A DNA stretch of 51,492 nt. Origin: Candidatus Saccharimonadota bacterium (GTDB lineage Bacteria > Patescibacteriota > Saccharimonadia > Saccharimonadales > Saccharimonadaceae). Positions 39,411-49,557 of this stretch are shown piece after piece. The notes below the pieces were generated by a model. The model did not search any database. It was not told the DNA's origin and worked only from the letters and a program-made list of their open reading frames with translations. Made by a program: the position numbers and the translations under genes. The first letter of the stretch is position 1; every line of letters begins with the position of its first letter. The stretch spans positions 1 through 51,492 of the forward strand of contig RZYF01000001.1 in the NCBI GenBank assembly GCA_010014665.1, given 5' to 3'.

Positions 39411-40094
39411 TTATGACATCATCACGCATAAATCATCGGTACGCACAACCATCTTTGTATCCGACAATGCAATAGTGCAATTACATTTTCCAGCAAGTGC
39501 TTTTGATAGTGACTCTGAATGCTTTGCAGAAATCATTGCACTTGTTTCACGTTTAGTATCACAAGTAATGTTTGATGTTGCCATTCTGTAACCATCTGTT
39601 CCTGTTATATGTACTCCATCATCAAAAATGAAGTGCAATGAATTCTTCACATCCTGTTCCATAGTGTGACACGCATAAACGGTGTTAGAAATCATCTTGG
39701 ACAGCTCGGTTGCAGAACATTCAGTAATGACTTCAGCGTTATCCATGACAACTTCTGGGTAGTCTTCAGCATTGATGATTGGCAACTTTATCTTTCGTCC
39801 ATCTGATTTAATAACAACAGTTGAATCAAGAACTTCAAGCTCTATCTCGCCAGCAGCACTTTTGACAACCTTGGAAAACATTGTGTGATCTACAGCAAAC
39901 TTATAGCAATCTGTTGATTGTACATCAACTGATTGAGATATTGCAATGGATAAGTCTGTTGCAGTAAGAGTCATGCATGTATTGCTAATGCTAACGTGAA
40001 CATTTTGCAGTGTAGTAATAGCTGGCCTTGAAGAAATAGCACAAGCAGTTGCCGATAATGCGTCTATCAATTCTGCTTTGTTTACAGTAATCAT
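39411..40094 (-). CDS. dnaN: N-terminal (domains I-II-like) part of the DnaN-like sliding clamp, ending at TAA 39413..39411
   Basis: ITVNKAELIDAL, TLTATDLSIAI, LPIINAEDYPEV, TGTDGYRMA are clamp-like segments. 227 aa. Confidence 0.7.
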   Translation of the reverse strand: MITVNKAELIDALSATACAISSRPAITTLQNVHVSISNTCMTLTATDLSIAISQSVDVQSTDCYKFAVDHTMFSKVVKSAAGEIELEVLDSTVVIKSDGRKIKLPIINAEDYPEVVMDNAEVITECSATELSKMISNTVYACHTMEQDVKNSLHFIFDDGVHITGTDGYRMATSNITCDTKRETSAMISAKHSESLSKALAGKCNCTIALSDTKMVVRTDDLCVMMS

Positions 40095-44777: not shown

Positions 44778-44965
44778 CAGTCCTCCTTGTCCACTGCTCG
44801 GTACTCGAAAAGCGGAACATTCTTTTGTTGTTTTGCGGTTAATGTTTTCAAAGCTTGGTCTCGGCATTGTGCGGTACTGTACTCTTTCCACTTGTGCCAG
44901 CTTCGCCAACGTAACGAGCGCACCCTGCTTGACGGTGATACCCGAATTTCAACTATGTGCTTCAT
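44777..44965 (-). CDS. small basic protein (62 aa)
   Basis: ATGA overlaps at both ends, with the organiser gene and with the methyltransferase. Confidence 0.45.
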   Translation of the reverse strand: MKHIVEIRVSPSSRVRSLRWRSWHKWKEYSTAQCRDQALKTLTAKQQKNVPLFEYRAVDKED

Positions 44966-45738
44966 ATCAGTCCTCGTTTCTGTTCGTTCATTTGTGCAAA
45001 TAGGTTTGTGATTTTGTCCTGCTGTGGTGGTTTGCGGATAGCAAGTCTTCGTTCAACTTCGCGCGTCTTGTCTTCCCATAATCTGTCTTTAGGGTTTATC
45101 ATTTTGTGGAATCCTGTTATGTAGCCACTGTCATAAACTTCTAGGTATTTAGGAATGAACTCGATGATAGCATTCTTATCTTCATCAGACAGCTTCTTCC
45201 AGTGACGATATGATTCGGCTTTTGTACCAATATAACCGTATGACTCCCACACACTCTCAAACTCGGCAGAGTATATATTATTGTTATTCTTTACCTTCTT
45301 TTCCTTCTCTTCTTTCTCTACCTTCTTATTTGTGTCCATCTCCGTTTCATCTCCGTTCCGTTTGCGTTTCATCTGCGTTTCATCTGCGTTTCGCACTTCG
45401 TTGTAAGTCTCGTAATTGCAAATAGTTATCCGTGTCATTTTCGCTTCACCTTTTAAACGTATCATGTTTCGTTTTTGAAACAAATCTAAAACACGCTTAA
45501 CCTTGCTTTTTGACCATCCCCAACGCGAAGCAAGTGTGACCATAGACATGCAGACTTGACCTCTTGCAACCCATACTTCTTCGCTTCCTAGAATCAATGG
45601 CTTATCGTCTTCTTTTACAACAGTCTTTGCAGTAGTAAGCAAATCGAGCCATGCTTCAAACTTAGAGAACTCGCGTCTTTCAGTCCAAAATTCATTTTGC
45701 TGATATTTGCGATATAATTTAATAAATCCTTTATCCAT
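44962..45738 (-). CDS. replisome organiser / DnaD-like replication initiation protein (258 aa)
   Basis: N-terminal winged-helix-type pattern GFIKLYRKYQQNEFW...VARGQVCMSMVTLASRWGWSKSKVKRVLDLFQK. Internal iteron-like repeats. Confidence 0.6.
   Translation of the reverse strand: MDKGFIKLYRKYQQNEFWTERREFSKFEAWLDLLTTAKTVVKEDDKPLILGSEEVWVARGQVCMSMVTLASRWGWSKSKVKRVLDLFQKRNMIRLKGEAKMTRITICNYETYNEVRNADETQMKRKRNGDETEMDTNKKVEKEEKEKKVKNNNNIYSAEFESVWESYGYIGTKAESYRHWKKLSDEDKNAIIEFIPKYLEVYDSGYITGFHKMINPKDRLWEDKTREVERRLAIRKPPQQDKITNLFAQMNEQKRGLI
45341..45395. repeat. five tandem 11-bp units (consensus tgcgtttcatc): iteron-like origin candidate inside the organiser gene
   Basis: tccgtttcatc / tccgttccgtt / tgcgtttcatc / tgcgtttcatc / tgcgtttcgca. 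An A/T-rich stretch lies about 45270-45300. Confidence 0.55.
45695..45738. repeat. left copy of a 44-bp exact direct repeat
   Basis: ttttgctgatatttgcgatataatttaataaatcctttatccat is identical to 49425-49468. Confidence 0.9.
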
Positions 45739-46688: not shown

Positions 46689-46803
46689 GGTTTAATCCTT
46701 TCTTTATTATAAAATGGGCGGTTAACCATCCACCGAAAGGGAGTTGCTCTCCAGCTAGACCTAAGTCTATTTTGTGTGTGTGATGTTTATAGAAATTTAT
46801 TCA

Positions 46804-46998
46804 CTATTCCATAGAACCTCCTTTCTCAATATATTCTGTGCTTGTAGGGAACTCTATTTCAGCACAACATTCTCTATTCGTGCATACAATGCGGTCATTG
46901 TCCCATCCACCACCATACATTGGCAACATGATTGACCCACAAATATCGCACTTCTGATTCATTTCAATTACTCGTTCAAATACTGTTTTGTCTTTCAT
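46804..46998 (-). CDS. zinc-ribbon protein (64 aa)
   Basis: CDICGS ... CTNRECC. Confidence 0.5.
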   Translation of the reverse strand: MKDKTVFERVIEMNQKCDICGSIMLPMYGGGWDNDRIVCTNRECCAEIEFPTSTEYIEKGGSME

Positions 46999-47017
46999 GA
47001 CTTACCCATTTATTTAA

Positions 47018-47117
47018 AGCACCCGACAGGATTCGAACCTGCACCATGTCATGATCATGAACAGTTTCTTCATGCCTAAAGAATATTACTGTACGTTTAC
47101 CATTCCGCCACGGGTGA
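47018..47117 (-). tRNA. tRNA-like gene, type II (Leu-like D arm, long variable region) with an aberrant 30-nt anticodon arm. Isotype undetermined.
   Basis: Minus strand: TCACCCG TG GCGG-AATGGTAA-ACGT A [CAGTAATATTCTTTAGGCATGAAGAAACTG] TTCATGATCATGACATGGT GCAGG-TTCGAAT-CCTGT CGGGTGC T. The T-loop GGTTCGAATCC is canonical. The D arm is close to E. coli tRNA-Leu TGGCGGAATTGGTAGACGC. There is a 1:72 T:C mismatch and no encoded CCA. Confidence 0.55.
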
Positions 47118-47131
47118 CTTTGTTTTAATCT

Positions 47132-47350
47132 CTATCGATATAATGTTTTTTCAAACTCTAATCCGTCAGAATACTCACGAAGCTCATGCCCATGTATTCT
47201 GTATTGTATGCGGGCAAATTCTTCAAGTACATCGATCCTATCAGCAACTGCATCAAGAAAATCAGCAGGAATAGTTTCGGCCATCAGTGTACCATTTGGG
47301 ATCATTTTAGCTAATCTGTTAATTGCGTTGTCTATGTTTTGTTTTTTCAC
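47132..47350 (-). CDS. hypothetical protein (72 aa)
   Basis: ORF in the operon. Confidence 0.5.
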   Translation of the reverse strand: MKKQNIDNAINRLAKMIPNGTLMAETIPADFLDAVADRIDVLEEFARIQYRIHGHELREYSDGLEFEKTLYR

Positions 47351-49117: not shown

Positions 49118-49513
49118 CTACTCTCCTAGTCTTTCGTTTATTTTTTCCAGTTCTGCTTCGAGTTGTTTCTTGCGTTCAACAAGTGCTTTGCTCTCGTCTT
49201 CGCTTGTTGGCATGTTGATGATCTTTCTGCATGTTGCAGGCTTTTTAAACGCCATTCCAACACCGTCAAATACTATTGATCCAATGTCTGTATGAATCCG
49301 ATATAGTCCAGTATTTTCTTGAAGGTTCGCCATCCATACTTCACAAACATATTCACCACATTTAATCACGGTTGTGTGTTCGCCACGCTTCAGCACTTCG
49401 AAATCATTATTCAACACGGACTCGTTTTGCTGATATTTGCGATATAATTTAATAAATCCTTTATCCATAGCGTATGCGTGTATACTCTCAATTACTTGCT
49501 GTAGTTCTTTCAT
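49118..49513 (-). CDS. hypothetical protein (131 aa) carrying an internal copy of the organiser N-terminus (MDKGFIKLYRKYQQNE)
   Basis: ATG at 49513 with a GAGGTGA SD. Residues 16-31 are encoded by the 44-bp repeat. Confidence 0.55.
   Translation of the reverse strand: MKELQQVIESIHAYAMDKGFIKLYRKYQQNESVLNNDFEVLKRGEHTTVIKCGEYVCEVWMANLQENTGLYRIHTDIGSIVFDGVGMAFKKPATCRKIINMPTSEDESKALVERKKQLEAELEKINERLGE
49425..49468. repeat. right copy of the 44-bp exact direct repeat
   Basis: Identical to 45695-45738, same orientation. Confidence 0.9.
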
Positions 49514-49557
49514 TATCACCTCATGCGGTTAACCTATACACCGCAAGGTTGTTTGAT

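Follow-up and report, generated by a model that had tools for sequence, protein, structure and literature searches.

A tRNA-Leu-like element with a closed hairpin in place of its anticodon arm in a divergent phage-type genome

In a bacterial LeuRS system, the charging of tRNA-Leu depends critically on the tertiary pairs of the elbow, whereas the anticodon arm is dispensable; the discriminator A73 is crucial, and its replacement by U lowers kcat/Km about 45-fold (PMC2377443). The elbow is also the part of the molecule that the processing enzymes RNase P and RNase Z clamp (PMC4810234). Bacterial tRNA introns are self-splicing group I introns, and the protein-spliced introns of archaea need a bulge-helix-bulge (BHB) motif (PMC4090602). 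Phages that have recoded a stop codon avoid the reassigned codon as a terminator and use it often within genes, mainly the late ones (bioRxiv 10.1101/2021.08.26.457843). Here we describe a tRNA-Leu-like element of 100 nt that runs from 47117 (5' end) to 47018 (3' end) on the minus strand of a stretch of 51,492 nucleotides, contig RZYF01000001.1 of GenBank assembly GCA_010014665.1, deposited as Candidatus Saccharimonadota bacterium. This whole stretch, which we call the window, is a phage-type genome of about 51 kb, very divergent from known phages, in which the plus strand carries the late genes and the minus strand the early ones.

We consider it somewhat more than evenly probable that the element is a non-decoding relic of a phage-type, type-II tRNA-Leu gene, in other words a pseudo-tRNA that forms part of an accessory cassette within the early operon. 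Among the alternatives listed in the initial annotation, the pseudo- or dead tRNA is the one that we favor: no anticodon is displayed, the discriminator is U73, and positions 1 and 72 are mismatched. Whatever its origin, the element is almost certainly unable to read codons, because its anticodon arm is one long closed hairpin.

The Rfam tRNA model RF00005 spans exactly 47018-47117 on the minus strand, with 32.4 bits against a gathering score of 29 (E-value 0.0055 over the whole window and 4.9e-05 over the local region). Its alignment covers the acceptor, D and T parts, and an insert of 44 nt replaces the 17-nt anticodon arm and the variable region. No other tRNA-like gene is present in the window. 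All 100 nt recur identically in two independent Logan assemblies (L019 and L020), and an assembly error or artefact is thereby ruled out. In RNA sense, with element position i corresponding to window position 47118 - i, the layout is UCACCCG-UG-GCGGAAUGGUAAACGU-A-CAGUAAUAUUCUUUAGGCAUGAAGAAACUG-UUCAUGAUCAUGACAUGGU-GCAGGUUCGAAUCCUGU-CGGGUGC-U, and the parts are the following.

47018 to 47117, minus strand: the whole tRNA-Leu-like element, matched by RF00005 and identical in L019 and L020.
47111 to 47117, minus strand: 5' strand of the acceptor stem, UCACCCG, U1 unpaired against C72; read from the sequence.
47093 to 47108, minus strand: D-arm GCGG-AAUGGUAA-ACGU with G18, G19, A14 and A21 intact, U8 lying at 47110; read from the sequence and its relatives.
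47061 to 47092, minus strand: the 12-bp rod that replaces the anticodon arm; from the minimum free energy (MFE) fold, pair probabilities and shuffles.
47074 to 47081, minus strand: CUUUAGGC, holding the overlapping Leu-like heptamers CUUUAGG (UUA) and UUUAGGC (UAG), mostly paired in the inner helix.
47044 to 47060, minus strand: predicted variable-arm hairpin UCAUG-AUCAUGA-CAUGG, 5 bp with a 7-nt loop.
47026 to 47042, minus strand: T-arm GCAGG-UUCGAAU-CCUGU with G53, U54, U55, C56, A58 and C61 intact; read from the sequence.
47018 to 47025, minus strand: 3' strand of the acceptor stem, CGGGUGC, and the discriminator U73; read from the sequence.

The initial annotation had described a tRNA-Leu-derived gene with an enlarged, non-canonical anticodon arm, and this description holds in its main lines: the covariance score exceeds the gathering threshold, the D-arm is of the Leu type and the arm measures 30-32 nt. 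The details that it had read are likewise borne out. In particular, the acceptor stem UCACCCG/CGGGUGC has six of seven pairs with a U1xC72 mismatch, the normal relative in L176 having GCACCCG with G1; U8 is present (47110, minus strand); the variable region measures 19 nt; the T-arm is the textbook one, with its conserved positions in place; and the 30-nt anticodon arm admits no solution with a 5-bp stem and a 7-nt loop. The D-arm GGCGGAAUGGUAAACG, called almost identical to that of bacterial tRNA-Leu, is in fact identical at 16 of 16 positions to the tRNA-Leu(UAG) of L040, L043, L045, L052, L053 and L055, genes of bacterial metagenome-assembled genomes (MAGs) among them. The nucleotides of the elbow and its tertiary contacts (U8, A14, R15:Y48, G18, G19, G53:C61, U54, U55, C56 and A58) are all present. 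The variable region contains the palindromic hexamer TCATGA twice in tandem, and its hairpin has a pair probability of only 0.25-0.46. At the 3' end no CCA is encoded, U73 stands at window position 47018 and the trailer reads UUAAAU.

The MFE structure is a cloverleaf in which the anticodon limb forms a 32-nt, 12-bp bulged hairpin. Specifically, this limb consists of an outer helix (ACAGU/ACUGU), a 4-nt bulge (AAUA), an inner helix of 7 bp (UUCUUUA/UGAAGAA) and a GGCA tetraloop, with pair probabilities of 0.82-0.98 in the ensemble, and the heptamers CUUUAGG and UUUAGGC are both buried in the inner helix. The canonical 5-bp stem and 7-nt loop, with U33 and a purine at 37, are missing from positions 27-43. 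The MFE and covariance folding that had been recommended as a check thus return a closed 12-bp rod and a tRNA match with a 44-nt insert. When alternative folds of the arm were forced with the cloverleaf frame held fixed, the closed rod had -27.0 kcal/mol, the 8-nt loop UAGGCAUG -23.8 kcal/mol (+3.2 over the MFE), the 9-nt loop UUUAGGCAU -23.3 kcal/mol (+3.7) and the 7-nt loop CUUUAGG -17.9 kcal/mol (+9.1, with a 3-bp stem remaining), and the extra outer helix of 5 bp persisted beneath every one of them. The heptamer CUUUAGG, which the initial annotation had noted as a would-be Leu-style 7-nt loop that it could not fold, is accordingly present but not displayed. The isolated arm is matched by only 20 of 2000 shuffles (1%), so that its self-complementarity is not accidental; the folding z-score of the whole molecule is unremarkable (-1.0). 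With about 12 bp, the limb exceeds the anticodon stem of a tRNA by roughly 7 bp. From the geometry of tRNA and ribosome, its loop should be unable to reach the decoding center while the acceptor end occupies the peptidyl-transferase center.

As for ancestry, scans with D-arm and T-loop patterns returned 15 viral, 22 metagenomic and 7 genomic loci. The same D-arm occurs in bacterial MAGs (Desulfomicrobium and Pseudomonadota: L052, L053, L055) and in several metagenome contigs, in ordinary tRNA-Leu genes of 80-87 nt with the loop CUUAGGA (anticodon UAG), A73 and an encoded CCA. In addition, a normal phage tRNA-Leu(AAG) in L176 begins with GCACCCG-UG-GCGGAAUGGUAUACGC and has 22 of the 25 nt at the 5' end in common with the element, G1 standing for U1. 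Within the arm, the heptamer UUUAGGC, one base to the right of CUUUAGG, is a standard loop of the Leu(UAG) type, comparable to the CUUAGGA of the normal relatives; in a 30-mer of the element's composition, a heptamer of this type is expected by chance in about 1.4% of cases and one of the YU-UUA-RN type in about 4.5%. By these likenesses the element is derived from a type-II tRNA-Leu, no one isoacceptor being singled out. The pattern scans yielded normal Leu tRNAs and unrelated aberrant genes, none with the element's arm. Element-specific exact patterns had no match in the metagenome and genome collections, and the scans of viral, metagenome and genome sequences brought up no homologue built in this way. 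The core CUUUAG..GCAU recurs in L003 only, in an unrelated context and fold. In the literature searched, no phage tRNA of this architecture is described; megablast and blastn of the locus against annotated phages gave no match, and neither did tblastn of the terminase-like ORF.

Two further origins were tried and set aside. The 3' 27 nt of the element, including U73, match a non-canonical family of Arg(ACG)-like genes, which would suggest a chimera of a Leu 5' half with an Arg-type 3' half. Over 120 matches to the 3' T-loop/acceptor string were found, mostly called as tRNA-Arg by ARAGORN. This origin is too weak to claim, because identity with these matches does not extend beyond the T-stem and the sequence of the 5' acceptor strand already fixes that of its 3' partner. 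A remnant of phage integration (attP) was rejected, since both halves of the tRNA are present and the phage has no integrase.

In the surroundings of the element, in the early operon, two more features are relevant.

46787 to 47337, minus strand: accessory cassette of about 550 bp, made of a 72-aa orphan ORF (47132-47350), the element and a 64-aa Zn-ribbon ORF (46804-46998).
46717 to 46734, minus strand: terminator-like hairpin after the cassette.

The element begins 14 nt past the stop codon of the 72-aa ORF and ends 19 nt ahead of the ATG of the 64-aa ORF, and no promoter-like site was found directly upstream of it. Relatives were reached through the neighboring 232-aa protein (P0002, P0003). 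In these (L016, L017 and L018) the flanks are 78-92% identical, and the segment corresponding to window positions 46787-47337 is replaced by unrelated genes, namely a 298-aa or a 185-aa gene (L016 7691-8914, L017, L018 2666-3320) with no Pfam or PHROG match. The comparison with related phages that had been proposed thus finds neither the cassette nor, at E<=1, any tRNA match in the three contigs. The site is a hot spot of cassette exchange in the early operon, and the element is accessory and apparently lineage-specific, since L016-L018 carry other genes there. For the 72-aa ORF no relatives were found. The 64-aa Zn-ribbon-like ORF has homologues of about 52% identity in three Vibrio phages (P018-4, phiV208 and vB_VaS_L1), two of which leave the gene unannotated, and none of which has a tRNA nearby. 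The DnaN, DnaB and DnaD-like genes of the window show that the host is bacterial. No tRNA ligase, CCA-adding enzyme, aminoacyl-tRNA synthetase or integrase is encoded by the phage, which argues against a partnership in repair or splicing as well as against an attP remnant.

Some observations on the remainder of the genome may be added. The rest of the phage looks Firmicute-associated, given its DnaD-like gene and the Clostridium homologues of the 232-aa protein. An exact repeat of 30 bp lies at 45709-45738 and 49439-49468: the N-terminus MDKGFIKLYRKYQQNE of the DnaD-like ORF (44962-45738) recurs inside ORF 49118-49519. Both short-read assemblies, L019 and L020, are broken at the repeat.

A course of events can be proposed for such a relic. 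It could have arisen when one or a few indels altered a normal tRNA-Leu in its anticodon and variable arms, possibly a hairpin-forming insertion complementary to the old loop and a tandem duplication of TCATGA; recombination with another tRNA gene of the same acceptor stem is a possible alternative. The element would be co-transcribed with the small ORFs on its flanks. RNase P and RNase Z would probably still release its RNA from the early transcript, because these enzymes recognize the elbow and the acceptor/T helix and not the anticodon, and this release would part the mRNAs of the 72-aa and 64-aa ORFs. As for charging, the body has the long variable arm and the Leu-type D-arm of a type-II tRNA-Leu, and in place of A73, found in nearly all normal Leu relatives, it has U73. 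To judge from its nucleotides, then, the element keeps the tRNA-body features that LeuRS, RNase P and RNase Z read and lacks a key determinant at the acceptor end; it would be at best a poor substrate of LeuRS and would not enter the ribosome productively.

Several considerations weigh against this relic. Decay should scatter substitutions over a gene, yet outside the center every elbow and stem position has been preserved, and the aberrant arm forms a helix of unusual quality (1% of shuffles). A selected design would look like this too, as would one event in the very recent past. Useless DNA is usually purged from compact phage genomes. The three assemblies are 100% identical, hence they carry no population or comparative signal on constraint, either way. 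Furthermore, transcription and RNase P/Z processing are steps that we infer, and the occurrence of the element together with a TTA to TAA change at a Leu codon elsewhere in the genome, discussed below, is left as a coincidence.

The main rival, which we regard as unlikely, is a functional, non-decoding tRNA mimic, whose anticodon limb is deliberately closed. Such a mimic would occupy or titrate a host factor (a toxin that modifies the acceptor end, LeuRS, the CCA-adding enzyme or RNase P) or might bind a phage protein, for example the product of the adjacent Zn-ribbon ORF. It would account for the intact tertiary-contact nucleotides, for three intact arms out of four and for the significant stability of the replacement arm (20/2000 shuffles), as well as for the tight embedding of the element in the early operon. 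The charging reaction of LeuRS, moreover, does not need the anticodon arm (PMC2377443), elbow mimicry by viral RNAs is known to hijack tRNA-binding factors (PMC4810234), and many other viral Leu-like genes combine intact bodies with odd centers. Against the mimic, no homologue of the same architecture was found, so there is no covariation; the central modules of the other aberrant genes are unrelated; and the close relatives L016-L018 do without the element. U1xC72 and U73 would weaken recognition at the acceptor end. No partner protein was identified either, the 72-aa ORF being an orphan and the homologues of the 64-aa ORF in Vibrio phages having no nearby tRNA.

The remaining decoding alternatives (short intron, expanded loop and suppressor) are, even when taken jointly, less probable than the mimic, and a remainder of the probability goes to none of these readings. 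According to the first of them, which we find improbable, an intervening sequence is removed or the loop is remodeled, to give Leu(AAG) by excision of 15 nt, a GAA anticodon by excision of 13 nt or Leu(UAG) in a 9-nt loop. ARAGORN, which the initial annotation had suggested running with intron detection, makes no call at default settings and calls a tRNA-Leu(aag) only if a 15-nt 'intron' at position 31/32 is permitted. A normal phage tRNA-Leu(AAG) with a similar body exists in L176 and L005, and CTT is the Leu codon most used by the phage. The intron model, however, has the loop UGAAGAA with G33 instead of the near-universal U, lacks residue 26 and leaves U73 in place. To see which deletions yield a tRNA call, every contiguous block of 1-30 nt within positions 26-75 was removed and each variant was passed through default ARAGORN. 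Calls were obtained for 180 of the 1065 single-deletion variants, with 23 different anticodon outcomes, none privileged and none fully canonical; no unique deletion restores a canonical arm, the best variants carrying G33 or an A.A mismatch. The cleanest deletion, of 13 nt, yields a clean cloverleaf that has U33 and presents GAA in a loop above 4 bp plus the A.A mismatch, but GAA does not suit a Leu-type body, and the Leu(tag) solution distorts the D-arm and mismatches the stem. In a bacterial host, 13-15 nt is far below the size of a group I intron, an Rfam scan of the element gave no intron match, and the fold has a single one-sided 4-nt bulge on the 5' strand and no BHB motif of the kind that archaeal introns need (PMC4090602). 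The short-intron idea of the initial annotation is consequently disfavored.

The suppressor idea starts from a second locus, the DnaN-like clamp gene.

39411 to 39413, minus strand: in-frame TAA in the DnaN-like clamp gene (40094 to 39027), at a site that is TTA (Leu) in L021.

The initial annotation had noticed this in-frame stop at a Leu-equivalent position, and rightly so. It is a single interruption inside an A-run (TCA-TAA-AAA-AAT), and the uninterrupted 355-aa homologue P0018 in L021, 91% identical, has TTA exactly there. The stop is also found in L022 and L023, from the same sequencing runs, and is hence fixed in three assemblies. The 127 codons past it contain no further stop and differ from L021 by 8 synonymous and 8 non-synonymous changes, a ratio like that of the 227 codons before it (26 and 22). 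In the rest of the window, no protein family is divided by one stop; wherever else neighbors share a frame, they are separate genes with start codons of their own. Neither the element nor the stop appears to be present in the sampled relatives, although this comparison is of one lineage with one, on separate short contigs. The coincidence is real: a Leu codon has changed from TTA to TAA in a lineage with a UUA-containing, Leu-like RNA.

A possibility is that the element acts as an ochre (UAA) suppressor of an unconventional type, inserting Leu and so rescuing the clamp gene. CUUUAGG would then read as C32-U33-UUA-G37, and a genuine Leu-type tRNA(UUA) with the same D-arm does exist in the viral contig L001. 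We nevertheless rate it as very improbable, and no higher the more general view that element and stop are functionally linked, in that the RNA promotes Leu insertion at UAA through a remodeled, slippery UUCUUU/GAAGAA helix, a processing step or a non-canonical entry into the ribosome. Exposing the heptamer would cost 9.1 kcal/mol and leave a stem of 3 bp above another helix of 5 bp, the limb should be too long for the decoding center and the discriminator is U73. The UUA reading is not privileged, because the overlapping UUUAGGC is an ordinary loop of the Leu(UAG) type and the better match to real Leu loops, and chance alone would put a YU-UUA-RN heptamer in about 4.5% of such 30-mers. At the level of the genome, TAA is the commonest terminator of the phage, ending 29 of 70 ORFs, 17 of the 27 late ones included; the genome is therefore not adapted to UAA read-through. 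Thus the UAA-suppressor idea, which had been offered as speculation, is not supported. We judge that the clamp stop is an independent and recent nonsense mutation in a gene that is probably dispensable, unrelated to the element, and this would explain the data without it. If the link were true all the same, the element would be a suppressor without structural precedent, and the amount of full-length clamp would be set by it.

Least probable of the decoders is one with an expanded loop of 8-9 nt, of the quadruplet or frameshift type: the 8-nt UAGGCAUG and 9-nt UUUAGGCAU registers lie only 3.2-3.7 kcal/mol above the MFE and other viral Leu-like genes (the L006 family) have a conserved 8-nt loop, but the registers have an ensemble probability below 0.01, stand on an extra 5-bp helix with a 4-nt bulge, and there is neither a candidate frameshift site nor a gene needing one, the two clamp halves being in the same frame. 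A decoy for anticodon nucleases, also on the initial list, is unlikely, as no anticodon loop is displayed.

The scans also brought to light a number of other non-canonical tRNA-like genes in viral contigs. A viral family of type-II tRNA-like genes has a common 'chassis' (acceptor AGTCAGG/CCTGACT-A, D-arm GGCGGAATGGTAAACGC and T-arm ACAGGTTCGAATCCTGT) with completely different central modules, that is, anticodon and variable parts. Its members are L003, L005-L013, L015, L027, L029, L030, L032, L036, L037, L041, L042, L044 and L047; they are called as canonical Leu (aag, tag or gag), as His gtg or, in several cases, as unresolvable, and a jumbo-phage contig may hold several copies. In L006 (163-255), L007 (3312-3404), L010, L012, L015, L041, L047 and L013 (4624-4717), a Leu-like tRNA has the conserved 8-nt anticodon loop UUCAAGGU on a stem of 4 bp, for which ARAGORN gives 'caag'. 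The loop is kept across diverged copies, in which the variable arm compensates (GUCAGU/ACUGAC against GUUAGU/GCUAAC), and the gene may be a functional quadruplet or expanded-loop decoder. In L005 (12523-12644; also L009, 7090-7211), a gene of 122 nt on the same chassis, with a 43-bit Rfam tRNA match, has a second T-arm-like sequence, GGUUCGAGUCC, nested in its center.

The Arg(ACG)-like family mentioned above consists of genes of about 97 nt that end in ...GCAGGTTCGAATCCTGTCGGGTGCTCCA (L069, L072, L078, L124, L141 and L142), most copies lying directly after a normal tRNA. These genes have the acceptor GCAUCCG/CGGGUGC, U73, an encoded CCA and a perfect anticodon arm (CUUGG-CUACGAA-CCAAG). No D-arm stands at the usual place; a D-loop-like sequence, AAGGUAAC, follows the anticodon arm, and the variable hairpin covaries. 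ARAGORN makes no call for them, and their last 27 nt equal the 3' end of the window element. Finally, L001 (1428-1511), a viral contig of 9.7 kb, carries a canonical Leu-type tRNA with the anticodon UUA, the loop UUUUAAA and A73, which resembles an ochre suppressor, and L004 (312-408) carries an aberrant Leu-like tRNA without a recognizable anticodon arm, directly upstream of a phage tmRNA (485-847, Rfam 97.7 bits). This survey suggests that standard finders underreport the non-canonical tRNA-like genes of viral contigs, and some of these genes look more promising than the element of the window.

Taken at face value, the element adds another aberrant tRNA gene to those of phages and bears mainly on annotation: covariance models say tRNA and intron-tolerant finders say tRNA-Leu(AAG), and it should be counted neither as a decoder nor as evidence of recoding. 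If its RNA is stable, it would represent a clean natural tRNA mimic from a bacterial virus, with tRNA-directed defense toxins or processing enzymes as possible targets. In addition, the paired lineages, one with the element and the TAA and one with neither, offer a simple system in which to ask whether odd tRNA-like genes affect read-through.

Set beside the systems described so far, the element comes near to several and coincides with none. With the tRNA pseudogenes, gene fragments (PMC9897764) and predicted non-canonical tRNA-like genes of prokaryotes it has in common a marginal covariance score, the loss of features required for function and a location in mobile or accessory DNA. It differs from the gene fragments of that account in being of full length, with both halves and a well-folded arm, and it is not a 3' fragment left by integration. 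Like the introns of archaeal and eukaryal pre-tRNAs (PMC4090602), it has an insert of 13-15 nt that pairs with the putative anticodon loop into a longer helix; unlike BHB introns, it belongs to a bacterial host, has one 4-nt bulge, places the insert at the non-canonical position 31/32-33/34 and would yield non-canonical products. Like the phage suppressor tRNAs (bioRxiv 10.1101/2021.08.26.457843) and the tRNA(UUA) of L001, it is phage-encoded and Leu-like and contains the string UUA, but those fold as canonical cloverleaves and present the anticodon in a 7-nt loop. Unlike recoded phages, this one uses TAA as its main terminator, and only one gene, an early one, is interrupted.

The tRNA-like structure (TLS) of turnip yellow mosaic virus (TYMV), the tRNA-like ends derived from long non-coding RNAs (lncRNAs), which are processed by RNase P (PMC4810234), and bacterial YrlA share with the element the elbow, the stacked acceptor and T helices and an altered anticodon end. 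Processing by RNase P and RNase Z is plausible for the element. The element is not a member of these groups by sequence or structure: a permissive Rfam scan for other RNA families gave noise only, without a tmRNA match and with YrlA at 14.8 bits against a gathering score of 69. Compared with canonical type-II tRNA-Leu (L052, L053, L055 and L176), finally, the element has 100 nt instead of 80-87, a closed 12-bp rod instead of 5 bp and a 7-nt loop, U73 instead of A73, U1xC72 and no encoded CCA, and its Rfam score of 32 bits is to be read against 35-75 for the normal genes of the same loci. With this type of tRNA it nevertheless has in common the whole D-arm (16/16), U8, A14, G18 and G19, the TΨC loop, a long variable region, an acceptor stem like that of L176 and the central UUUAGGC.

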